Below, piece after piece: positions 1,851-62,242 of a DNA stretch of 64,000 nucleotides (its first letter is position 1; each line of letters starts with the position of its first letter). A program made the position numbers and the translations under genes. Source of the DNA: an uncultured Bacteroidota bacterium. GTDB lineage: Bacteria; Bacteroidota; Bacteroidia; AKYH767-A; JABDAW01. The stretch spans positions 1,428-65,427 of the forward strand of contig CAIMUP010000013.1 of the NCBI GenBank assembly GCA_903844645.1, in the 5' to 3' direction. The notes under the pieces were generated by a model. It had not been told where the DNA came from. It made no database searches and was given only the letters and a program-made list of their open reading frames with translations.

Positions 1851-2047
1851 CAAATGATTATTAGCGGAGCTCGAATAGGTATTAGAGGAGCTCAAATGGT
1901 TATTAGAGGAGCTCGAATAGGTATTAGAGGAGTTCGAATAGGTATTAGAGGAGTTCGAATAGGTATTAGAGGAGCTCTAATAGGTATTAGAGGAGCTCAA
2001 ATAGGTATTGGAAGAGCTCAAATAGGTATTAGAGGAGCTCAAATTCC
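1851..2047. repeat. Array A: 21-bp tandem repeat, about 9.4 copies
   Basis: The unit is cgaataggtattagaggagct. Unit starts were hand-indexed at 1851, 1872, 1893 ... 2019. It lies between the TBDR stop (1791) and the DUF4249 start (2078). Confidence 0.95.
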
Positions 2048-4042: not shown

Positions 4043-4345
4043 AGGCATTAGGAAAAAAAGCAGGGCATCAAATTACCCAATTTCATACCTTAAGTTTTTG
4101 CTCAAGGCATCACATTACCCGATGTGTGGGGTTGAGCAAAAACTTAATGCTTCACATCATCCAATTTGGAGGTATGGGAAAAAAAGTAATGCCCCACATT
4201 ACCCGATTTTGGGGTATGGCAAAAAACCTAATGCCCCACATTACCCAATGTGATGGTATGGCAAAAAACCTAATGCCCCACCTTACCCAATGCGGGGGTA
4301 TGAGCAAAAAAGTAGTGCCTCACATTACCTAATGTGGGGGTGTGA
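4043..4345. repeat. Array B: 42-bp tandem repeat, about 7 copies, each with an internal hairpin
   Basis: The unit is gccccacattacccaatgtgatggtatggcaaaaaacctaat. The anchor gc(a/c/t)(t/c)cac falls at 4065, 4107, 4149, 4191, 4233, 4275 and 4317, a spacing of exactly 42. Each unit contains the dyad cacatt-accc-aatgtg. Confidence 0.95.
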
Positions 4346-8652: not shown

Positions 8653-8718
8653 AAAAATAAAATGAAAAACTATTGCTTTCGGTTTAGGAAAAATGCAGGG
8701 CGGTTTAGCTTTTATATT

Positions 8719-8926
8719 GACCTGTTTAAAGTTTATGTCGGTCTGTTTAAAGTTTGTATCGGTCTGTTTAAAGTTTAAACAGGTCTGTTTAAAGTTTGTA
8801 TCGGTCTGTTTAAAGTTTAAACAGGTCTGTTTAAAGTTTAAACAGGTCTGTTTAAAGTTTGTATCGGTCTGTTTAAAGTTTAAACAGACCTGTTTAAAAT
8901 TTGTACAGACCTGTTTAAAAACTATA
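8719..8926. repeat. Array C: 21-bp tandem repeat, about 10 copies, two alternating variants
   Basis: The units are ggtctgtttaaagtttgtatc and ggtctgtttaaagtttaaaca, starting at 8719, 8740 ... 8908. Junctions of the b-type variant create the 9-bp inverted repeat tttaaacag-gt-ctgtttaaa. Confidence 0.95.
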
Positions 8927-15334: not shown

Positions 15335-15546
15335 GATGGTGGCAAAGAAAGGAAATTCGTGGGGCAGGGATGGAAAACTTTTTTTTCAGAGAATTGTATT
15401 TCTCCACTATTTTTAGTATCATTGCAACCTCGAACAAAAAATGAAGCCTCAAAACACATATAATAATCTCGCAAATCTCTCCAATAATTTTGGAGGTGGG
15501 GCTTGCATATTAAATAGAGTTTGTGTAAACTCGAAGCCGCCTCAAT

Positions 15547-15577
<31 letters not shown>

Positions 15578-15658
15578 CAAATTTTTTGAAATAACCAAAT
15601 CGGAGAACACTTTTTCTGGTTCGGTTCAAAAAATTTCGTTTTCCTTTTCTAATCTTTC

Positions 15659-15951
15659 ATTAAAGTTTCCAAAAATTTCCGCGATTTTTCAGGAATCTTG
15701 GTCAAGTCGCCAGAGTTTTGACCAAAGTTTCATACGCCCCAGCCAAAGTGTGCCGAACTTCAGCCAAAGTTTTGGAAACTTTGACCAAAGTCCAGCGACT
15801 TTGACCAAAGTAGATGAAGATTCGGTTGAGGTTTCTGAAACTTTGACCAAAGTGGGCTTCACCGTGGTCAAAGTTTCTGCTTTCTCGCCCAAAGTTTCCG
15901 GAAATTCCTCCAAAGTTTCCCAAAAATCCCCCAAAGTTTCTGAAACTTCGG
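15659..15951. repeat. Array D: degenerate 21-bp-phased array with conserved core CCAAAGT(TT)
   Basis: Core starts fall at 15722, 15743, 15764, 15785, 15805, 15847, 15868, 15889, 15910 and 15931, giving spacings of 21,21,21,20,42,21,21,21,21. The sequence between cores is variable. Confidence 0.85.
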
Positions 15952-16076
15952 GACCTGTAGGAAGAATATTGGCTGTAAATCAGTCCATTTCTTTCCTGAC
16001 TTCGATTTTCGAGGTCCTTTTACAAAATCCCGCTAACGGAATCCAAATAGAAATTTAATAACTTAATAAATAAACT

Positions 16077-28646: not shown

Positions 28647-28850
28647 TTCACCCTTTTGAGGGATTGTTTTAGGAACTAATACCTTGTAATTTTGCATCCT
28701 TAATTACAAACAATGGATCATTACAATCACATAGCGAATACAACGGATAGCAATCACGACAGAGGCAATGCTTCTGGAAGGTTTTTCAATGGTGGCGGTA
28801 GTGATATGGATACAAATTGTAGTTTAAACATATGCCAAAAAAACTCAAAC

Positions 28851-29102
28851 ATATCTTTTAGTAACAATAAGATACCTTTTAGTAACAATAAGATACCTTT
28901 TAGTAACAATAAGATACCTTTTAGTAACAATAAGATACCTTTTAGTAACATAAAGATATGTTTTAGTAACAAAAAGATACCTTTTAGTAACAAAAAGATA
29001 CCTTTTAGTAACAAAAAGATACCTTTTAGTAACAAAAAGATATGTTTTAGTAACAAAAAGATACCTTTTAGTAACAATAAGATATGTTTTAGTTTTTCTC
29101 AC
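28851..29102. repeat. Array E: 21-bp tandem repeat, about 12 copies
   Basis: The unit is ataccttttagtaacaataag, with variants atatg... and ...aaaaag. Starts fall at 28851, 28872 ... 29082. Confidence 0.95.
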
Positions 29103-29205
29103 CATAGTAAAAGCAATAGTTGCTATGGTGATGGGTCTTTTCAGAATGCCCACCCCTCTCCCTTGTATTCAAAACCAAGTAGTAACATAATAAAATAACA
29201 ATAAA

Positions 29206-29973
29206 ATGAGTCTATTAAAATTAGTATTAGTAAAAATTTCTATCTTCATGATCATCACGAAGGCTTCCATCATGAGGCAGTACCTTTTAGATTGTGTCAG
29301 TGCGGGTTCTGCCTCCACTTTGTATGCCAATCCGGCTATTACCACTGCCTTTTATACCTCGATGACGAATGCTGCGGCTGCCATTCAGACAGCGGTAACA
29401 GTTTGTGCGGCGAACAACACGAAGGCAAACAGGGATGCCATTAAAGATGCTATCGCAGCAGGAAAAGTGGTCGCGGCAAGCTATGCTTCGCAAGTTCAGG
29501 TGATTGCCAATCTCCCTATTAATGCCGCTACCCGCGAGGCAGCAAAGACAAATATTGAACAATCGCATCTGACGGCACAAAAATTAAATCAAACAACCAT
29601 AGGAATACCCGAAACCCCTGTATTAACGGGCGAAAATAACGGCATCGGCAAGATAAAAGTAAAGGTTACCAATCCTGGCGTATCGTATGACCCTAAAACT
29701 ATTATTTTTGTTGCTGTTTCCCTGCCCATAGTGCCTGTAACGGTGCCGCCAACACCTCCTCCGGCTGACCCCGTAGTTACGCTCATAGCAGGACAAGTGA
29801 TGGTAAAGACTTCCGTGGCATGCGAAGTGATAACCATCACCCAGGATGGCAAAGGAAGAGAGGTAGATTTGGTTGGATTGACTGCCGGCACTCGCTTTTC
29901 CATCTCTGCCTACACAAAAAATGGCAATAAATTGGTGAGCGTATTGTCGAACGCTATTATCGTACAGGCATAA
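29206..29973 (+). CDS. orphan protein P3 (array-fronted, unknown function)
   Basis: This 255-aa ORF has an Ala-rich helical N-terminal half, a Pro-rich linker (PVTVPPTPPPADP) and a beta-rich Ig/Fn3-like C-terminus. It shares a weak N-terminal motif with P1 (KAS..., YANP...AF). Confidence 0.6.
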   Translation: MSLLKLVLVKISIFMIITKASIMRQYLLDCVSAGSASTLYANPAITTAFYTSMTNAAAAIQTAVTVCAANNTKANRDAIKDAIAAGKVVAASYASQVQVIANLPINAATREAAKTNIEQSHLTAQKLNQTTIGIPETPVLTGENNGIGKIKVKVTNPGVSYDPKTIIFVAVSLPIVPVTVPPTPPPADPVVTLIAGQVMVKTSVACEVITITQDGKGREVDLVGLTAGTRFSISAYTKNGNKLVSVLSNAIIVQA

Positions 29974-34682: not shown

Positions 34683-34864
34683 GTACACGTGTACAATTCG
34701 TCCTGCAACTGTGTCGGAGGCAATGTTCGGTGTACTTTGCCCCAACACAGTTGTGTTTGCCAATTCTACATGTGTACTATTGGCAAACACAGTTACTTTT
34801 GCAGAAGTACACGTGTAGAATTGGCAAACACAACTGTGTTTGCCAAATGTACACGTGTACATTC
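34683..34864. repeat. Array F: roughly 42-bp tandem repeat, about 4.3 copies, built from two alternating palindromes
   Basis: It alternates GTACACGTGTAC (12-bp palindrome at 34683, 34807, 34849; degenerate at 34725, 34766) with AATTGGCAAACACA-ACTGTGTTTGCCAAAT (30-bp palindrome). The dyad centres are 21 bp apart. Confidence 0.9.
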
Positions 34865-37950: not shown

Positions 37951-38202
37951 ATGAATATCTTTTGCTTCGGGATGAATATCCTTTGCTTCGGGATGAATAT
38001 CCTTTGCTTCGGGATGAATATCCTTTGCTTCGGGGTGAATATCTTTTGCTTCGGGGTGAATATCTTTTGCTTCGGGATGAATATCCTTTGCTTCGGGATG
38101 AATATCCTTTGCTTCGGGATGAATATCTTTTGCTTCGGGATGAATATCTTTTGCATCGGGATGAATATCTTTTCATCCGGCTTCAATACATTTTCATCCC
38201 GG
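37951..38202. repeat. Array G: 21-bp tandem repeat, 12 copies
   Basis: The unit is atgaatatcctttgcttcggg. Starts fall at 37951, 37972 ... 38182. It lies between the terminator at 37870-37908 and the ppiC-type gene at 38399. Confidence 0.95.
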
Positions 38203-38358
38203 GTTAATGTCTTACATGAACTTTTCCCCGTTATAAAACCCGATTTGGAGGGGTAAAAAGGGAGGTTTTTGGAAATTCTCCACCCTCCATTTCCCACTTT
38301 TAAGTCTCCATTCCCCATTTTCCATTCCCCATTCTTTTTCCATTGTCAGGAAATTTTA

Positions 38359-38366
38359 TAGTTTTG
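38359..38366 (+). promoter_or_regulatory. candidate -7 box (TAnnTTTG) for the ppiC-surA-moxR gene block
   Basis: The sequence tagttttg lies 33 nt upstream of the ATG at 38399 and downstream of array G. Confidence 0.4.
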
Positions 38367-38398: not shown

Positions 38399-40354
38399 AT
38401 GAAAAAAATAGCAGTAAATTTTTTAATCTTAACCATCGCGATAGTAGCTACCATCGCCCTCAAAGCCCAAGGCAATGACCCGTTATTAATTACCATCGGG
38501 AATGAAAAAATCACCAAGTCGGAGTTTGAAAAGGTCTTCCGCAAAAACAACAGCAAAGGCAACCCGTCAGATCAAAAAGCCGCTGCCGATTACCTTGAAC
38601 TGTTCGTCAATTATAAATTGAAGGTCAAGGAAGCCTGCGAAATCGGGATGGATACCGCCAGCACCTTCGTAGCCGAATTGCAGGGATATAAAAAACAATT
38701 GTCCACCCCCTACCTCGTGGATAAAGAAGTTACCGACAAGCTCATGCACGAGGTTTATGACCGCATGAAAAAAGATGTTCATGCCGCCCATATCCTTTTC
38801 AAATGCCCCTCCGATGCGTTGCCCAAAGATACCCTTGAGGCTTATAACAAGGCGATGACGGTACGTATCCATTTAATAAAAGGAGAAGATTTTGCAAAGG
38901 CAGCACGCGAGAACTCTGACGATCCTTCTGCCAAAGAAAATGGCGGAGATTTAGGATATTTCTCTGCCATGCAAATGGTTTATCCGTTTGAATCAGCCGC
39001 CTTCAATGCCAAGGTAGGCGAGGTTTCGATGCCTACCCGCACTAAATTTGGTTATCATTTAATAAAAAAATTAGACGAACGGAAAGACCCGGGAGAAGTA
39101 ACCACGGCACACATCATGGTCAAGATAGCCAAAGATGCGAAGCCTGAAGATTCGACCAAAGCAGCGCAGAAGGTTGCGGAATTAGTTCAGAAATTAAAAG
39201 ATGGCGGCAACTTCGAGGAACTCGCCAAACAATATTCTGATGATGGCGGATCGAGCAAAAATGGCGGCGTTTTGCCAGCCTTCAAAACAGGTCGCATGGT
39301 TCCGGAGTTCGAGGCAGCAGCATTTAATTTGAAGAACAAAGGCGACATATCGGATCCCGTTCGGACTTCTTATGGCTGGCATATAATAAAATTAATCAGC
39401 CGTAAAGACATCGGCAGCTACGACGAAATGCAAACCGAATTGAAAGCCAGTATTGGCAAAGATTCGCGGTCAGAGGTCAGCAAGTCGTCCATGATTGCGA
39501 AGATTAAAAAAGAATATAATTTTAAACAAGACACCAAGACCCGCGATGAGTTTTTTGCTGTTTCCGATTCATCATTGATTAATGGCAAGTGGACTTCTGA
39601 TAAAGCCGAAAAACTGACAAAAACCATGTTCACCTTAGGCGATAAACAATTTACCCAAAAGGATTTCGCGACCTACATCGTTGCCCACCAAACGGCACGG
39701 AAGAATACCACGCCCCAAGCTATCGTGAACGGCATGTATGAATCTTATGTCAGCGAATCCGCGATGACTTACGAGGAGAATCGGTTAGATGTCAAATACC
39801 CTGAATTTAAAGACCTGATGCAAGAGTACAAGGACGGCATCCTCCTTTTTGATTTGACCGATAAAAAAGTATGGTCCAAGGCTGTCAAGGATACTGTCGG
39901 CATGAAAGAATATTATGAAAAGAACAAAATAAAATACCAGTGGGGCGAACGCGTACAGGCTACCATCTACAATTGTTCTTCCGAAGAAATGACCGGAAAA
40001 GTACGGGAGTTAATCAAGAAGAAAACATTGAGCAACGACTCTATCTTGGCTATCATAAACACCACCTCCCAGTTGAATCTTTCTATCAAGGAAGGGAAAT
40101 ATTCCAAGGGCGATAATCAGTTTGTTGATTCCATCAAATGGCAGAAAGGATTGTCGCCGAATGTTGTTTCCGGCAAGTCCTTTGTCTTTGTGGATGTGAA
40201 AGAAAAGCTCGCCGCCACCGGTAAAACATTGGAGGAAGCAAAAGGACTTGTTACCGCCGATTATCAGGCAGCTTTGGAGAAAGAATGGATCGCTACATTG
40301 CGAGCCAAATTTCCATTTACGGTCGATCGGAACGTGTTGGCAACGATTAAATAG
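38399..40354 (+). CDS. peptidyl-prolyl cis-trans isomerase, parvulin (PpiC/SurA-like), two PPIase domains
   Basis: It has a signal peptide and the parvulin motifs FGYHLIK and YGWHIIKL. Confidence 0.85.
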   Translation: MKKIAVNFLILTIAIVATIALKAQGNDPLLITIGNEKITKSEFEKVFRKNNSKGNPSDQKAAADYLELFVNYKLKVKEACEIGMDTASTFVAELQGYKKQLSTPYLVDKEVTDKLMHEVYDRMKKDVHAAHILFKCPSDALPKDTLEAYNKAMTVRIHLIKGEDFAKAARENSDDPSAKENGGDLGYFSAMQMVYPFESAAFNAKVGEVSMPTRTKFGYHLIKKLDERKDPGEVTTAHIMVKIAKDAKPEDSTKAAQKVAELVQKLKDGGNFEELAKQYSDDGGSSKNGGVLPAFKTGRMVPEFEAAAFNLKNKGDISDPVRTSYGWHIIKLISRKDIGSYDEMQTELKASIGKDSRSEVSKSSMIAKIKKEYNFKQDTKTRDEFFAVSDSSLINGKWTSDKAEKLTKTMFTLGDKQFTQKDFATYIVAHQTARKNTTPQAIVNGMYESYVSESAMTYEENRLDVKYPEFKDLMQEYKDGILLFDLTDKKVWSKAVKDTVGMKEYYEKNKIKYQWGERVQATIYNCSSEEMTGKVRELIKKKTLSNDSILAIINTTSQLNLSIKEGKYSKGDNQFVDSIKWQKGLSPNVVSGKSFVFVDVKEKLAATGKTLEEAKGLVTADYQAALEKEWIATLRAKFPFTVDRNVLATIK

Positions 40355-40405: not shown

Positions 40406-41251
40406 TTGTTCAGAATCATTTTTTGCTGCTTAATCATTTCTCTGATGACCTCCTGTTCCTATTTCAAACATAACGACGGCAATGCCGCTGTGGCAAAGGC
40501 TTTCGATGCTACTTTGAATCGGGCTGATGTCGCGGGATTGGTGCCGAAGGGCAGCTCCAAACAGGATAGTGTGATGATAGTGAAGAGCTATATTGACTCT
40601 TGGATTCGGAAGGAATTGGTATTAAGAAAAGCCGAGAAAAACCTCTCCGATGAGGCGAAGGATGTAGAGAAACAATTGGCAGATTATAAGAATTCTTTGA
40701 TAATTTATGCTTATGAAAAGGAACTGGTTCGCCAGCAATTAGATACCACGGTGAAGGATGCGGAGATCGAAAAATATTACAACGAGCACCAGGGAAATTT
40801 TGAATTAAAGGATAATATTATCAAGGTTTTGTACCTTAAATTACCGAAGACTGCGCCGAGACTTTATACCGTGAGGCAATGGTATAAATCCTCCAAGGCG
40901 AATGACCGGAAGTCGCTTGAGGACTATGCGCATCAGTATGCCGTGAATTATTATTTCGATGATAATTCGTGGTTGCAATTCGATGATTTATTAAAAGAAA
41001 TTCCGATTAAAACCTACGATAAAGAGCAGTTCTTGAAGAACAACCGGTATGTCGAAATCGAGGATTCGATGAATCTGTATTTCGTCAATATCAACGGCTT
41101 CAAAACTAAGGAAAGTACCTCGCCGCTCTCGTTTGAAAAGGATAATATCAAGAGCATTATTATCAATAAAAGGAAGCTGAAATTGATTGAGGATATGGAG
41201 AAAAAGGTGTACGACGAGGCGGTGAAGGGCAGCGATTTCAAGATTTATTAA
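40406..41251 (+). CDS. lipoprotein, chaperone-like (SurA N-domain-like, tentative)
   Basis: It has a putative TTG start and a lipobox (LMTSCS), and it sits between two parvulin genes. Confidence 0.5.
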   Translation: MFRIIFCCLIISLMTSCSYFKHNDGNAAVAKAFDATLNRADVAGLVPKGSSKQDSVMIVKSYIDSWIRKELVLRKAEKNLSDEAKDVEKQLADYKNSLIIYAYEKELVRQQLDTTVKDAEIEKYYNEHQGNFELKDNIIKVLYLKLPKTAPRLYTVRQWYKSSKANDRKSLEDYAHQYAVNYYFDDNSWLQFDDLLKEIPIKTYDKEQFLKNNRYVEIEDSMNLYFVNINGFKTKESTSPLSFEKDNIKSIIINKRKLKLIEDMEKKVYDEAVKGSDFKIY

Positions 41252-41277
41252 TAAAATGGACAAAAAGATGCTTTTTC

Positions 41278-41445
41278 TATTAAATACGACTACAATGATG
41301 CCGTCATCTCCTACAATGATAGCGTCATCTACTACAATTATGCCGTCATCTACTACAATTATGCCGTCATCTACTACAATGATGGCGTCATCTACTACAA
41401 TTATGCCGTCATCTACTACAATGATGGCAACTTCGACTACACATT
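41278..41445. repeat. Array H: 21-bp tandem repeat, 8 copies
   Basis: The unit is tgccgtcatctactacaatta. Starts fall at 41278, 41299 ... 41425. The array ends 15 bp before the surA-like ATG (41460). Confidence 0.95.
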
Positions 41446-41459
41446 TATTACATTAATTC

Positions 41460-42830
41460 ATGAAAATAATCAAAAATATAACGGGAATTTTTTTCTGCAT
41501 CGCGCTGCTGAATTCCATTGATACCGTGGCGCAGGTGAAAATTCTGGATCAAGTAGCAGGGGTGGTCGGGGATAAGGTGATTCTGCAATCCGACATCGAA
41601 TCGCAATATCAGCAATATATGCTCCAAGGCGGGGTGGATAATCCAGCCATTCGCTGCGAAATTATGTATCAGATGTTGATTAATAAACTGCTCCTGAATC
41701 AAGCAATATTAGATAGCGTAGAAGTTTCGGGCACGGCTGTAGAGGAGGAATTGGATAAACGGATGCGGTATTATATCTCCCAAATCGGCTCGCAAAAGTT
41801 GCTGGAGGAACGTATGGGAAAATCGGTATTGGAGCTGAAAGCCGACTTCAGAACGCTGATTAAAGACCAGATGCTGACGCAACAAATGCAACAAAAAATT
41901 ACGAAAGATGTGAATGCCTCGCCATCGGATGTGAAAAGTTATTACGAACACATCCCGAAGGATAGTTTGCCGAGGGTAGAATCGGAATTTGAGATACAAC
42001 AAATCGTTCGGCATATAGAAGTTACCGATGAGCAAAAAAAGGAAGTGAAGGATAAATTGGAAGGTTATAAACAAGAGATTTTGAAGGGTACTCGGGACTT
42101 TGTCGCCACTGCCGTTTTATACTCTCAAGACCCCGGTACTACTAAAAAAGGCGGTGAATTAGGCTTCTTCGGGAGGGGCGATATGCAACCTGCTTTTGAG
42201 GCTGCCGCATTCCGCCTTCGTCCGGGTGAAATATCGGATATTATTGAAACGCCGTTCGGGTATCACATCCTGCAATTGATTGAAAGAAGGGGCGAACAGA
42301 TTAATGTCAGGCATATCTTATTACATCCAAAAGTAAGCGATGATAATATTGACAAAGCGAGTAAATTTTTGGATAGTTTGAAGACGGAAATTAATAATAA
42401 AACCATCACCTTTGCCGATGCGGCGATGAAATTCTCTGATGATGCAGATACCAAGAACAATGCCGGACTGATGCAAAATGTGCAGGATGGAACAACCAAA
42501 TTTGAGGCTACCACGATGGATAAAACCCTGTTCTTCCAGATAGATAAATTGAGCATCGGGGAGCTATCGAAGCCTGTATCTTATTCTGACAGAGAGGGCA
42601 AGGCTTCGTTGCGGGTATTGATGGTGAAATCGAAAACAGCTCCGCATACCGCGAACTTGAAAGACGATTATCAGAAGATTCGCGGGGCGGCTTTGCAGGA
42701 GAAACAGAACCTCGCCTTGCTGGATTGGGTGAAGAAGAAGCGTGCTAATACGTTTGTGAATATCACGAAAGATTATCGCAAGTGCGATGCCATAAAGGAC
42801 TGGTTGAAGAATACCGCAACAACGAATTAA
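41460..42830 (+). CDS. surA: SurA-like periplasmic chaperone / peptidyl-prolyl isomerase
   Basis: It has a signal peptide, a SurA N-domain-like region and the parvulin motif FGYHILQL. Confidence 0.85.
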   Translation: MKIIKNITGIFFCIALLNSIDTVAQVKILDQVAGVVGDKVILQSDIESQYQQYMLQGGVDNPAIRCEIMYQMLINKLLLNQAILDSVEVSGTAVEEELDKRMRYYISQIGSQKLLEERMGKSVLELKADFRTLIKDQMLTQQMQQKITKDVNASPSDVKSYYEHIPKDSLPRVESEFEIQQIVRHIEVTDEQKKEVKDKLEGYKQEILKGTRDFVATAVLYSQDPGTTKKGGELGFFGRGDMQPAFEAAAFRLRPGEISDIIETPFGYHILQLIERRGEQINVRHILLHPKVSDDNIDKASKFLDSLKTEINNKTITFADAAMKFSDDADTKNNAGLMQNVQDGTTKFEATTMDKTLFFQIDKLSIGELSKPVSYSDREGKASLRVLMVKSKTAPHTANLKDDYQKIRGAALQEKQNLALLDWVKKKRANTFVNITKDYRKCDAIKDWLKNTATTN

Positions 42831-42848: not shown

Positions 42849-43817
42849 ATGGATATAAAATTTAACTCCGATGTAGAAGCAGTGGATTCCCTGGTGGGGA
42901 CTTACAAGGACCTTCGCAAAGAAATTGGGAAAGTGATTATCGGGCAAGACGATATTGTGAAGGATGTGCTGATCTCTATCTTCGGGCAGGGACATTGCTT
43001 GCTGGTGGGTGTGCCGGGCTTGGCGAAGACGCTGTTGGTGAATACGATTGCGCAGACGTTAGGCTTGACGTATAACCGGATTCAGTTTACGCCTGACTTG
43101 ATGCCGAGTGATATTATCGGGACGGAAATATTGGATGAAACTCGTAAGTTTCGGTTTATTAAAGGACCGTTGTTTGCGAATATTATCCTTGCCGATGAGA
43201 TTAACAGAACTCCACCAAAGACTCAGTCGGCGTTGTTGGAGGCGATGCAGGAACGGACTGTTACTGCTGCCGGAACGCGGTATGATTTGGGGAAGCCGTT
43301 CTTTGTGTTGGCGACGCAAAACCCGATTGAGCAGGAGGGGACTTACCCGTTGCCGGAGGCGCAATTGGATAGGTTTATGTTTAATGTGTGGTTGGATTAT
43401 CCAAAATTTGAGGAGGAGATACAGGTGGTGAAGAATACGACCTCGAATTATAAACCGGAGTTAAAAGTTATTATTCATGGGGAAGAGATTGTGTATTTTC
43501 AGGACTTGGTGAGGAGGATTCCTATTGCGGATAATGTGTTGAATTATGCGGTAACCTTGGCGCAGAAGAGCAGACCGAATACGGCATTGGCTACGGAGAT
43601 GGTGAATACTTATCTGTCGTGGGGTGCTGGTCCGAGGGCTTCGCAGTATTTGGTGATTGGGGCGAAGGTGAACGCGATATTCAATGGGAAATATTCTCCT
43701 GATATTGAGGATGTGCAGGCGGTGGCGGCGGGTATTCTGCGGCATCGTATTGTATTAAATTATAAGGCGGAAGCTGAACGGGTTTCGGTGGAGAGCATTG
43801 TTAAAAGCCTTATTTAA
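42849..43817 (+). CDS. MoxR-family AAA+ ATPase
   Basis: It has Walker A GVPGLAKT and Walker B ILADEINR, at 322 aa. Confidence 0.9.
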   Translation: MDIKFNSDVEAVDSLVGTYKDLRKEIGKVIIGQDDIVKDVLISIFGQGHCLLVGVPGLAKTLLVNTIAQTLGLTYNRIQFTPDLMPSDIIGTEILDETRKFRFIKGPLFANIILADEINRTPPKTQSALLEAMQERTVTAAGTRYDLGKPFFVLATQNPIEQEGTYPLPEAQLDRFMFNVWLDYPKFEEEIQVVKNTTSNYKPELKVIIHGEEIVYFQDLVRRIPIADNVLNYAVTLAQKSRPNTALATEMVNTYLSWGAGPRASQYLVIGAKVNAIFNGKYSPDIEDVQAVAAGILRHRIVLNYKAEAERVSVESIVKSLI

Positions 43818-43868: not shown

Positions 43869-44162
43869 CGGCTGTTGATTGGAGAAAGTCGGCTGTTGAT
43901 TGGGGAAAGTTGACTGTTGATTGGGGAAAGTCGGCTGTTGATTGGGGAAAGTCGGCTGTTGATTGGGGAAAGTTGACTGTTGATTGGGGAAAGTCGGCTG
44001 TTGATTGGGGAAAGTCGGCTGTTGATTGGGGAAACATGGACGTAGATTGGGGAAACATGGACGTAGATTGCGGAAACATGGACGTAGATTGGGGAAACAT
44101 GGAGGTAGATTGTAGAAACATGGAGGTAGATTGCAGAAACATGGAGGTAGATGGGTTTTACA
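43869..44162. repeat. Array I: 21-bp tandem repeat, 14 copies in two subfamilies
   Basis: It has 8 units of (c/t)g(g/a)ctgttgattggggaaagt, arranged cgg,cgg,tga in a 63-bp higher order. Six units of tgga(c/g)gtagattgnngaaaca follow. Starts fall at 43869 ... 44142. Confidence 0.95.
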
Positions 44163-49926: not shown

Positions 49927-50162
49927 CCGACCGGATTTGGGAAAGATGCGGTCGGATATTTCCTTTCTCCGGTCGGATATTTCTTTTTTCCGGTCGGATA
50001 TTTCTTTTTTCCGGTCGGATATTTCTTTTTTCCGGTCGGATATTTCTTTTTTCCGGTCGGATATTTCCTTTTTCCGGTCGGAGATTTCTTTTTTCCGGTC
50101 GGAGATTTCCTGTTTCCGGTCGGAGATTTCCTTTTTCCGGTCGGATATTTCCCGTTACCGAC
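49927..50162. repeat. Array J: 21-bp tandem repeat, about 11 copies
   Basis: The unit is ccggtcggatatttctttttt. The anchor ggtcgga falls at 49950, 49971, 49992 ... 50139. It lies between dgkA and the alpha-oxoamine synthase gene. Confidence 0.95.
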
Positions 50163-50299: not shown

Positions 50300-51691
<1,392 letters not shown>

Positions 51692-51721
51692 ATCCCAAAT
51701 AACCTTAATAATGATATAATT

Positions 51722-54368: not shown

Positions 54369-54558
54369 CCGTCATCATATATGAAAACGGACAATCGTAA
54401 TAGTTATTATTGTATTAACTATTGTAATTATTGCTTTAGCAATAGTAAATATGACCATAACGATACCTTGGGCGATATTTTCTATCGTTACTGCAATAAT
54501 AACATATGTAAAAGGTATCCTTAGGATACCAATTATACGTTTTCATATATGATGACGG
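54369..54558. repeat. perfect 21-nt inverted repeat pair flanking 148 bp
   Basis: The sequence ccgtcatcatatatgaaaacg (54369-54389) has its exact reverse complement cgttttcatatatgatgacgg at 54538-54558. Confidence 0.9.
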
Positions 54559-54579
54559 ACGAAAAGGATAGTAAAAGCT

Positions 54580-54748
54580 GTTATCACGATAGTTATTGTT
54601 GTTATCACAATGGTAAAAGCGGTTATCACAATAGTTATTGCTGTTATCACAATAGTTATTGTAGTTATCACAATAGTTATTGCAGCTATTACAATTGTAA
54701 AAGCAGTTATTATAATAGCTATAACAGTATTCACGATAGCGATGACAA
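54580..54748. repeat. Array L: 21-bp tandem repeat, 8 copies
   Basis: The unit is gttatcacaatagttattgct. Starts fall at 54580, 54601 ... 54727. Related, degenerate reverse-orientation copies lie at about 54390-54450. Confidence 0.85.
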
Positions 54749-57781: not shown

Positions 57782-58026
57782 ATAATTTGGGGCGAAATTA
57801 GTATAATTAAGGATAATAATATGATGAAGTATTTGATAAAAATAAGGATGACAAAAGGAATGCTACACGACAAATTATTTTTTCATAAACTTCAGATTCA
57901 TCTACTAAATGACTACAATTTTTATCTAATAATTTGGAGAATTAATGCCTGCAAAACGGAACAAATTAAGAGCATAAAAATGTGGCTTCTTTGGAATAAA
58001 ATTCTGAATAAGAGGGATTCCGACTC

Positions 58027-58152
58027 GGCTGCGAATGATTTCGTCGTGACTGCGACTATTTTCATCATGACTGCGACCATTTCCGACTAGATTGCGACTA
58101 TTTTCATCGTGACTGCGACCATTTCCGACTAGATTGCGACCATTTTCATCGG
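58027..58152. repeat. Array M: 21-bp tandem repeat, 6 copies with a 42-bp higher order
   Basis: The units gactgcgaccatttccgacta and gattgcgactattttcatcgt alternate. Starts fall at 58027 (degenerate), 58048, 58069, 58090, 58111 and 58132. Confidence 0.9.
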
Positions 58153-61929: not shown

Positions 61930-62242
61930 CCAAAAGTCGAGATATTGAAACAATGAATCGTACCCATTAACCACTTAATTGAAGTGAAAGACTATTTTAG
62001 TATAATGAATGACTCATTAAGTATAATGAAAGACTATTTTAGTATAATGAATGACTAAAACACTAATATGAAAGACTAATTACCAGACATGAAAGACCAC
62101 TTCATGTCTGGCAATTAGTCTTTCATATTAGTGAATTAGTCTTTTACCTTAATAAAGTAGTTAATCATTATACTAAAATAGTCTTTCACTTCAATTAAGT
62201 GGTTAATGGGTACGATTCATTGTTTCAAGGTCTCGACTTGGA
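61930..62242. repeat. Element N: roughly 313-bp nested imperfect palindrome built from the GAAAGAC motif on a 21/42-bp lattice
   Basis: The outer arms match over about 65 bp perfectly (61945-62009 vs 62165-62229), with imperfect extension to 61930 and 62242. The inner 33-bp stem (62061-62094 / 62101-62133) has one mismatch. GAAAGAC starts at 61986, 62028, 62070 and 62091, and GTCTTT(C/T) starts at 62118, 62139 and 62181. Confidence 0.9.

Follow-up and report, generated by a model that had tools for sequence, protein, structure and literature searches.

The REP/BIME elements of enterobacteria are intergenic and often intercistronic, are transcribed with the operon that contains them, and form hairpins able to stabilise mRNA lying upstream of them; across the genome, REPs have one palindromic consensus in common, and they require a RAYT transposase. 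The MIRUs (mycobacterial interspersed repetitive units) of Mycobacterium tuberculosis, VNTR loci located within operons, are a dispersed, apparently mobile family, with units of 40–100 bp that are homologous between loci. They are thought to affect downstream gene expression minimally (PMC12548453). Heptanucleotide repeats (STRR, TAACTGA) are known in cyanobacteria, Beggiatoaceae and a few Bacteroidetes, with a patchy phylogenetic distribution (PMC4679880), and the AGAT repeats before uspA2 in Moraxella (cited in PMC4679880) exemplify the contingency-locus VNTRs of promoters or 5' UTRs. Surveys of prokaryote tandem repeats end at 9-bp units (PMC12699852) and would therefore miss arrays built from 21-bp units, of which we found no published description for bacteria in the literature searched.

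We describe here such an array (array H), located between a lipoprotein gene and a SurA-like chaperone gene of an uncultured Bacteroidota bacterium, in a window (the whole stretch of DNA analysed) of 64 kb. The spacer measures 208 bp between the double stop (TAA TAA) of the upstream ORF, ending at 41251, and the surA-like ATG at 41460, exactly as the first-pass annotation had read it. Tandem Repeats Finder (TRF) reported an array at 41289–41426 (period 21, 6.6 copies, 89% matches), and the unit ACTACAATGATGCCGTCATCT was found six times (≤3 mismatches) against 0.00 expected (100 shuffles), with no further occurrence in the rest of the window or among 89 loci. Units placed in register match the consensus at 21, 18, 20, 20, 20, 20 and 16 of 21 positions, and the next 21 nt at only 8 of 21; the 21-bp period claimed earlier stands, but seven units were found instead of eight. 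Nor does the array fill the spacer almost entirely and end 15 bp before the surA ATG, as had been stated: 37 unique nt precede it, it covers 138–147 of the 208 bp (66–71%), and it ends 24–33 nt before the start codon. With head-to-tail units in the 10–100 bp range, far above chance, array H has the tandem structure of bacterial minisatellites or VNTRs in the generic sense. Both flanking genes had been taken for chaperones, which holds for the surA-like gene by its domains; the upstream lipoprotein (starting at the ATG at 40445 in public gene calls) matched no Pfam family and gave only a sub-threshold NCBIfam match (E = 1e-5), against the N-terminal portion of an EpsD-type isomerase. Coordinates of all features are collected in Table 1.

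Table 1. Array H, the surrounding operon and the other arrays, in window coordinates.
Feature	Position	Strand	Remarks
Array A, 21 bp x 8.9, TATTAGAGGAGCTCAAATAGG	1859..2044		unit unrelated to H
Array B, 42 bp x 5.5	4111..4341		in convergent spacer
Array C, 21 bp x 10	8711..8919		palindromic unit
Array D, 21 bp x 11.8	28847..29093		TRF
Array E, 21 bp x 12.5	37951..38213		upstream of operon promoter
Bacteroidota -7 promoter box TAGTTTTG	38359..38366	+	canonical; 32 nt 5' of ppiC-like ATG; probable ppiC-lipoprotein-surA-moxR promoter
PpiC/PrsA-like parvulin gene, 651 aa	38399..40354	+	first of block; Pfam Rotamase domains, E = 2.5e-56
Lipoprotein gene	40406..41251	+	TTG start at 40406 gives signal peptide with lipobox LMTSC
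5' flank of array H, unique, 37 nt	41252..41288	+	AAAAAG-AUG-CUUUUU, a weak A/U-rich hairpin; relatives have no counterpart
66-aa ORF across array H (MPSSTTI-type heptads)	41256..41456	+	in surA frame; judged incidental
Array H, 7 units x 21 bp, consensus ACTACAATGATGCCGTCATCT	41289..41435	+	63-bp higher-order pattern
3' flank of array H, up to surA ATG	41436..41459	+	A/U-rich; predicted unpaired, start region accessible
SurA-like parvulin chaperone gene, 456 aa	41460..42830	+	PPIC and SurA_N domains
MoxR-type AAA+ ATPase gene	42849..43817	+	last of conserved block
Array I, 21 bp x 13.5	43869..44152		two unit subfamilies; downstream of moxR
Array J, 21 bp x 9.7	49949..50152		TRF
Array K, 21 bp x about 10	51497..51706		starts within 3' end of aminotransferase ORF
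Array L, 21 bp, partly decayed	54399..54722		in convergent spacer
Array M, period 21/42 bp	58018..58151		between minus-strand genes
Arrays N and O, 21 bp each, inverted relative to each other	61985..62200		within larger inverted repeat

Compared with the described systems, array H resembles the MIRUs in its layout: tandem units in an intercistronic operon spacer, with a short ORF running through them up to the neighbouring genes. MIRU copy number varies between strains, as may that of some arrays here. However, the units here are 21 bp long and unrelated between loci (mean best match 10.0 of 21 vs. 9.9 in the null, i.e. no shared motif), they have no shared flanks, and the typical −4 overlap is absent at array H (gaps of +4 and +3 nt); the ORF of array A has TAATG and ATGA overlaps, one at each end. 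With REP/BIME elements array H shares its intergenic, intercistronic position and, most likely, its transcription with the operon; in contrast to them, the arrays lack a consensus, and of 14 units only three, those of A, C and D, are significantly palindromic, H not among them (palindromy p=0.92, stem p=0.39). Heptamer repeats likewise occur as many intergenic arrays of one fixed short period, often just 5' of start codons (PMC4679880), but there one or a few 7-bp heptamers recur, whereas here each array has its own 21-bp unit without heptamer substructure (lag-7 similarity 70 vs. null 77). Contingency-locus VNTRs also lie just upstream of a gene; they have units of 1–9 bp and a changeable copy number that sets the expression of surface or virulence genes, whereas array H adjoins housekeeping genes, has 21-bp units and shows no variation in the three assemblies that span it.

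Some de Bruijn graph assemblers use 21, the period found here, as their smallest k-mer, and contig breaks are frequent inside these arrays, which break short-read assemblies: four contigs (L006–L009) terminate within one, and the L006 scaffold contains a 100-N gap within array E. We nevertheless give practically no credence to an assembly artefact, as three assemblies that differ in sample and pipeline (L005, L006 and L007) agree on the 208-bp spacer at 100% identity and all span array H with the same copy number, and two Logan contigs (k=31) start within the array and partly cover the spacer. Arguing in the same direction, its units carry ordered variants and a 63-bp higher-order structure, the arrays avoid coding sequence, and they differ from species to species. 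Array lengths do differ between 99.9%-identical strains by exact multiples of 21 (in L005, array E is 168 bp and array J 63 bp shorter), with collapse possible in these short-read assemblies.

The ppiC-lipoprotein-surA-moxR genes form a conserved, tightly packed four-gene block in relatives (79–95% amino-acid identity with L001; ppiC-like gene syntenic in L001, L090, L094, L095 and L100). Five related species (L001/L091, L100, L093, L094 and L095) have a lipoprotein-surA junction of 4–21 nt without an array, in L090 the two gene calls overlap, and homology between the relatives and the window ends at the TAA and restarts at the ATG. Because these five species keep the short array-free junction, array H is, judging from sequence comparison, a species-specific insertion of ~196 bp into a conserved operon block. 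The first-pass annotation had proposed this comparison of spacer lengths and had named absence of the array from close relatives as part of what would count against its reading; absence is what we found. The species encoding the SurA homologue P0003 has, at this junction too, a 21-bp array, decayed and unrelated to array H, which we located through that species' lipoprotein (unit identities 20, 18, 15 and 14 of 21; variants of 189 bp and 231 bp in short-read assemblies, where collapse is possible). This array points to an independent gain, and two such gains at one 12-nt junction could be a hint that gene boundaries are preferred. A metagenome scan with MoxR recovered only distant relatives, all without arrays, and served as a background sample.

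The host organism clearly uses the Bacteroidota −7 box TAnnTTTG, which lies 15–45 nt before the ATG of 10 window genes, including the ppiC-like gene (vs. 0.76 expected). No such box, exact or with one mismatch, occurs on the forward strand of the spacer (41252–41459), which also has no sigma-70-like site and no intrinsic terminator-like site on that strand; the box is likewise absent, even with one mismatch, upstream of the lipoprotein gene, and Rfam 15 gave 0 matches at gathering score across the whole window. Since the spacer lacks the box that other window genes have, array H is most likely transcribed as intercistronic operon RNA, and we infer co-transcription also from the tight conserved synteny together with the missing promoter and terminator. 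The first-pass annotation had left two alternatives, an array within the ppiC-lipoprotein-surA-moxR transcript or one carrying promoter elements; the synteny and the box before ppiC (38359) favour the former. That array H itself carries the surA-moxR promoter is very unlikely, although the spacer is long enough, there is, as argued earlier, no other room, and an A/T-rich stretch lies 3' of the array: beyond the missing box and sigma-70-like sites, 12 of the 13 arrays are without a box, and the junction in relatives leaves no space for a promoter.

The ORF across array H does have the position and the surA frame that had been reported for it, with its ATG 4 nt past the upstream stop and its end 3 nt before the surA ATG, without overlap. 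An open frame with an ATG that fits tightly between two genes, together with a raised lag-3 similarity within the H unit (12 of 21), could be read as a genuine gene whose product is a small repeat protein rich in Ser, Thr and Met. We consider this extremely improbable: the peptide has no homologue at E ≤ 10 among 5.8 billion proteins and no Pfam family, the ORF is not called by public gene callers in L005–L007 and is absent in relatives, the differences between units are nearly all non-synonymous in its frame, and the codon log-likelihood of that frame is −0.7 vs. +2.0 and +2.2 for the other two open frames. The H unit leaves 3 of 6 frames open (~3.8 expected by chance), and two of the three forward frames stop ≤4 nt from the surA ATG regardless of the array sequence, ORFs ending beside the downstream ATG because the A/T flanks are stop-rich. 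The fit of the ORF to both neighbouring genes is therefore expected by chance, and the hint of coding drawn from it earlier is not supported. Candidate coding signals across the class were likewise rejected: the raised lag-3 similarity of units (101 vs. 77 ± 7) is only ~1 SE above that of ordinary intergenic 21-mers, a mean of 3.8 of 6 open frames is the chance value and gives no sign of selection for open reading frames, and codon-usage scoring had no discriminating power (genes 1.74, intergenic DNA 1.44, arrays 1.29). ORFs on sister arrays have already been mis-called by gene callers.

We also weighed a role at the RNA level, in which array H would tune expression either as a hairpin 3' stabiliser or processing site that uncouples ppiC-lipoprotein levels from those of surA-moxR, much as REPs act in E. 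coli operons, or through translation of the ORF followed by reinitiation at surA. The spacer RNA is predicted to form inter-unit hairpins (−41.8 kcal/mol, z=−3.96 vs. shuffles), the 4-nt and 3-nt gaps at the two ends of the ORF would suit reinitiation, as would the overlaps at the array A ORF, a 21-bp period keeps the ORF in frame at any copy number, and the MIRUs provide a precedent (PMC12548453). On the other side, relatives make do with a 12-nt junction in this operon and lack the array, the fit of the ORF to the ATG is at chance and its frame is the poorest in codon fit of the three open ones, and arrays of the same class lie in convergent spacers, where coupling is impossible. The array of the P0003 species at the same junction is decaying, which argues against selection on its sequence. 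On balance we regard RNA-level tuning as rather unlikely.

We hold it to be probable, if by no means settled, that array H is a non-coding 21-bp minisatellite, intercistronic in the operon and tolerated as a passenger without dedicated function. The array-free relatives, the missing promoter box, the lack of ORF conservation and the properties of the class speak for this; the folding of the spacer RNA speaks against it and may reflect a role as RNA stabiliser or processing site. Under the passenger account, a local tandem duplication would have arisen and expanded in this species within the former ~12-nt lipoprotein-surA junction, presumably by slippage or unequal exchange and probably neutrally, and transcription from the probable promoter at 38359 would carry the array along as intercistronic RNA, the array itself providing neither a promoter nor a conserved peptide. 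Its passive effect would be to move the surA start away from the upstream stop codon, so that the tight spacing allowing coupled translation would be lost. Initiation in Bacteroidota is Shine-Dalgarno-independent and is suited by an A/U-rich unpaired start region. What may make the loss tolerable is that the final ~25 nt, like the start region, remain A/U-rich and unpaired (mean unpaired probability of the surA start region 0.70, rank 7 of 42 gene starts). In practical terms, annotations should treat this repeat, conspicuous as it is immediately 5' of an essential-type chaperone gene, as neither a promoter nor a small protein.

On this view array H would be one outcome of a process acting across the lineage, by which arrays of exactly 21 bp are seeded and expanded regardless of sequence, where non-coding DNA tolerates them. 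The window contains ~13 arrays with unrelated units, making up 30% of its non-coding DNA, and its self-identity reaches ≥75% only at lags of 21, 42, 63 and so on; no array period other than 21 or 42 occurs in it. The arrays sit in co-directional, convergent and divergent spacers. Apart from the inverted pair N/O, they have neither flanks in common nor target-site duplications, which would be signs of a mobile element. They are present in five related species and absent in more distant ones, with rapid turnover between species, and in C, E, I, L, N and the array of the P0003 species the decay looks polar, with the 5' edge sharp and the 3' edge degraded, a suggestive pattern though partly a by-product of how the register was set. 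Because the period is the sole property common to the arrays, and 21 bp is 2 x 10.5 bp, array H or the whole class might be architectural DNA, with in-phase bends, curved DNA or a nucleoid-protein lattice that affects supercoiling or transcription. In a wedge model each unit twists by 700–720 degrees and arrays of 10 units are strongly curved, and real units are slightly more curved than shuffled ones (mean rank 0.34). We find this unlikely: the excess curvature is weak and depends on the wedge-model parameters, periods of 10–11 or 31–32 bp, which never occur here, would do just as well, the units have no common motif able to act as a binding site, and the arrays turn over quickly between species.

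The mechanism remains incomplete, since generic slippage leaves the constant period of 21 unexplained, and the cyanobacterial heptamer repeats, themselves unexplained, are perhaps the only loosely comparable case of one exact period. That unrelated sequences have all been amplified with one and the same period suggests that repeat formation includes a step that measures length. We therefore put forward, tentatively and as something that may well prove wrong, that the Bacteroidota lineage studied here (five species or more, SurA ≥69% identical) possesses a sequence-independent molecular ruler that makes and extends tandem duplications of exactly 21 bp, array H being a fresh footprint of it and not of ordinary slippage. 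Such a length corresponds to two helical turns or seven codons, and the ruler could be an enzyme, or a protein associated with replication or repair whose footprint is 21 bp. If this is true, new arrays would be continually seeded at gene boundaries, ~30% of the non-coding DNA would have been built in this way, the ends of genes would now and then be invaded (array K), and the same 12-nt junction would have been hit independently in two species. As the lineage offers young and old arrays and array-free orthologous sites, alongside strain-level differences in length, the birth, growth and decay of bacterial minisatellites would be testable here.

The spacer between the lipoprotein and surA-like genes measures 208 bp, from the end of the upstream ORF at 41251 (TAA TAA) to the surA-like ATG at 41460, and array H makes up 66-71% of it. 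TRF placed the array at 41289-41426 (period 21 bp, 6.6 copies, 89% matches, plus a 63-bp higher-order pattern), and we could follow seven in-register units across 41289-41435 (21, 18, 20, 20, 20, 20 and 16 of 21 positions identical to the consensus ACTACAATGATGCCGTCATCT), after which consensus identity of the next 21 nt drops to just 8/21. With at most three mismatches the unit occurs six times (0.00 expected). Before the array lie 37 unique nt, and 24-33 nt separate its end from the ATG; the first-pass annotation, which gave 8 units of 21 bp and a distance of 15 bp to the ATG, was therefore right about the 21-bp array but slightly generous about its extent. The period of 21 coincides with a common k-mer size, yet the array is no assembler artefact: three assemblies built from different samples (L005, L006 and L007) share the 208-bp spacer at 100% identity, and two Logan contigs begin within array H. 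The array is real.

The same four genes (PpiC-like, lipoprotein, SurA and MoxR; 79, 86, 82 and 95% identical to those of the window) are found in the closest genome that we identified, a Bacteroidetes MAG (L001), where 12 nt separate the stop codon of the lipoprotein gene from the start codon of surA (TAA-AACAAATTTGTA-ATG). When relatives are aligned to the window, homology ends at the TAA and picks up again at the ATG. Because of this break, and because the relatives' junctions are tight, array H with its flanks is, judging from these comparisons, a net 196-bp insertion, specific to the window's species, in an ancestrally tight junction. The lipoprotein matched no family except, below threshold, the N-terminal part of an EpsD-type isomerase in NCBIfam.

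Genes of the block in the window, and the lipoprotein-surA junction in related loci
Feature or locus	Position in window	Identity to window	Junction or remark
PpiC/PrsA-like parvulin gene	38399-40354		
Lipoprotein gene, family unknown	40406-41251		lipobox if TTG start used
SurA-like parvulin gene	41460-42830		
MoxR AAA+ ATPase gene	42849-43817		
L091		SurA 82%	12 nt
L100		lipoprotein 84%	12 nt
L090		SurA 69%	lipoprotein and surA gene calls overlap
L093		SurA 66%	12 nt
L094		SurA 54%	21 nt
L095		SurA 54%	4 nt

The species encoding P0003, a SurA homologue with 71% identity, carries a second array at this junction. Its spacer (189 bp in L096, L097 and L099; 231 bp, i.e. +42 bp, in two further assemblies) contains a decayed 21-bp array, CGACCGCATTCYTCATAACAA, with units matching at 20, 18, 15 and 14 of 21 positions. 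This unit matches that of array H at 9/21 positions (null 9.9), and aligning the two spacers locally gave a best score of 16 (shuffled mean 17.4). As units and spacers are unrelated, and species closer to the window have no array at the site, two independent gains at the lipoprotein-surA junction are the parsimonious reading.

An ORF of 66 aa (41256..41456, MPSSTTI heptads) had been noted to run through array H. Its geometry was described correctly, but a coding role is not supported: no homologue was found at E <= 10 among 5.8 billion proteins, no Pfam family matched, and the public gene calls for L005-L007 do not include it. The array H unit is open in 3/6 frames and the mean over all arrays (3.8/6) is the chance value, while the codon log-likelihood, a weak measure on 21-mers, was poorer in the proposed frame (-0.7) than in other open frames (+2.0, +2.2). 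That the ORF stops 3 nt before the surA ATG is uninformative, because in 2/3 frames the first post-array stop falls at most 4 nt from the ATG. We judged the ORF incidental.

The Bacteroidota -7 box is in use in the window's organism: ten genes, among them the ppiC-like gene (TAGTTTTG at 38359), have TAnnTTTG, usually with a C after it, 15-45 nt ahead of their ATG (0.76 expected at random positions). Even when one mismatch was allowed, the forward strand of the lipoprotein-surA spacer had no copy of the box, nor had the region upstream of the lipoprotein gene; scans of the spacer for sigma-70-type sites and terminators returned nothing, and Rfam had no match in the whole window. It had been proposed that array H either belongs to a transcript or itself carries promoter elements, and the former is best supported, whereas the promoter reading is not supported: because the block is tight and conserved and the spacer holds no box or terminator, the best reading would be co-transcription from 38359, with array H as intercistronic RNA. 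On the minus strand, a TAnnTTTG box (TATTTTTG, 41471-41478) in the first surA codons points into array H; it is probably there by chance, since it is not conserved in L001.

As RNA, the spacer is predicted to form hairpins between units (-41.8 kcal/mol, z = -3.96), but with its final ~25 nt and the start of surA left open (mean unpaired probability at -20..+10 of 0.70, rank 7/42 gene starts), which is compatible with independent initiation. A tuning role of array H at the RNA level, the main rival explanation, seems unlikely to us; the array is probably a tolerated passenger. The probable operon promoter at 38359 is directly preceded by array E (37951-38213) and a (TCTCCAT)x4 heptamer (region 37951-38335); L005 has 8 fewer units of array E, and the L006 scaffold has a 100-N gap in it. 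If any array affects expression of the ppiC-surA operon, the effect would come from the array E region and not from array H.

The 64 kb of the window hold ~13 arrays including H (labelled A-E and H-O), which account for 30% of its non-coding DNA (2.9/9.8 kb) and occupy co-directional, convergent and divergent spacers. In a self-identity scan over lags 4-129, segments at least 75% identical appeared at no lag other than 21 and its multiples (42, 63 and higher). Units of different arrays are no more alike than chance (mean best match 10.0/21 vs. a null of 9.9), only three are significantly palindromic, and neither common flanking sequence among arrays nor 7-bp substructure within units was found. 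The remaining intergenic DNA retains a lag-21 signal (0.319 vs. about 0.28), consistent with decayed arrays. Between 99.9%-identical strains the only structural differences were -168 bp (array E) and -63 bp (array J), both multiples of 21, for which short-read collapse is possible. Coding sequence outside arrays has a faint self-identity excess at lag 21 (0.286 vs. ~0.277 at other multiples of 3) and also at lag 42, which suggests 21-bp duplications (7-aa repeats) inside genes too.

L001, L090, L100 and the P0003 species likewise carry arrays of this period, built from units of their own; there are none in relatives at 54% SurA identity, and they are almost absent from ~850 kb of 80 more distant loci. 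Because of this distribution, we regard the phenomenon as confined to one lineage.

A site-specific enzyme or mobile family as array source is ruled out by the sequence-unrelated units. Growth by slippage or unequal exchange would fit, because 42-bp and 63-bp higher-order patterns and whole-unit length changes are seen; neither explains the exclusive 21-bp period. Selection on reading frame would permit other periods too, such as 18 or 24 bp, and selection on helical phase would be equally served by 10-11 or 31-32 bp. The period is no different in convergent spacers. Since all of these leave the exclusive period unexplained, a length-measuring step would likely act when arrays are born. Arrays C, E, I, L and N and the P0003-species array (L096 1554-1637) have a sharp 5' (low-coordinate) edge, with units decaying towards the 3' edge, and K has the opposite polarity; the window's plus strand has positive GC skew and is the probable leading strand. 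The edge polarity may point to polar growth and is partly a by-product of register setting.

Array K (51497-51706) starts within the 3' end of an aminotransferase ORF (50300..51544), whose stop codon lies inside a repeat unit; its AGKDDNY frame is in phase with both neighbouring genes, several unit differences are synonymous (GCT/GCC, GAT/GAC), and it may have extended or rewritten the aminotransferase C-terminus. A 96-aa ORF (1791-2081) runs across array A; its ATG overlaps the upstream stop (TAATG) and its stop the downstream start (ATGA), a coupling geometry like that of mycobacterial interspersed repetitive units (MIRUs); the downstream gene has no promoter box before it. Array D (KIPFSNK heptads) falls within a 161-aa ORF (28713..29198) that has a canonical promoter box (TAATTTTG at 28687) 18 nt ahead of its ATG and stops 7 nt short of the next gene (region 28687-29206), so the array may lie in a long 5' leader or leader ORF. 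Arrays N and O (region 61950-62240) share one 21-bp unit in opposite orientations within a longer inverted repeat (39-bp flanking arms, 95% identical), a potential large cruciform or hairpin. Two arrays, at 4111-4341 (42-bp units) and 34744-34861 (41-bp units), have clear hairpins or palindromes in their units (e.g. TGCCAAATGTACACGTGTACAATTGGCA) and may represent a separate, REP-like type. A doubtful 205-aa ORF (15441..16058) holds a perfect (AC)14 run (15547-15574) and a 2.5-copy 21-bp repeat (15888-15940).

In the literature we found no description of 21-bp-period arrays of this type; a tree-of-life survey of tandem repeats covers 1-9-bp units only (PMC12699852). MIRUs, intercistronic repeats with a coupling ORF (PMC12548453), and heptamer repeat families (PMC4679880) come closest, but array H lacks the defining features of both. 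Heptamer arrays (TCTTAAT x13, TTTAAGG x8.7, AATGAGG x10.9, AATTCAT x5) occur in other Bacteroidota loci (L037 27-289 and 11926-11986; L016 8454-8529; L100 2691-2725), and in L037 a 21-bp array containing the heptamer adjoins a heptamer array; a link between the 7-bp and 21-bp systems is possible. The interest of the finding lies in the lineage-wide 21-bp rule.
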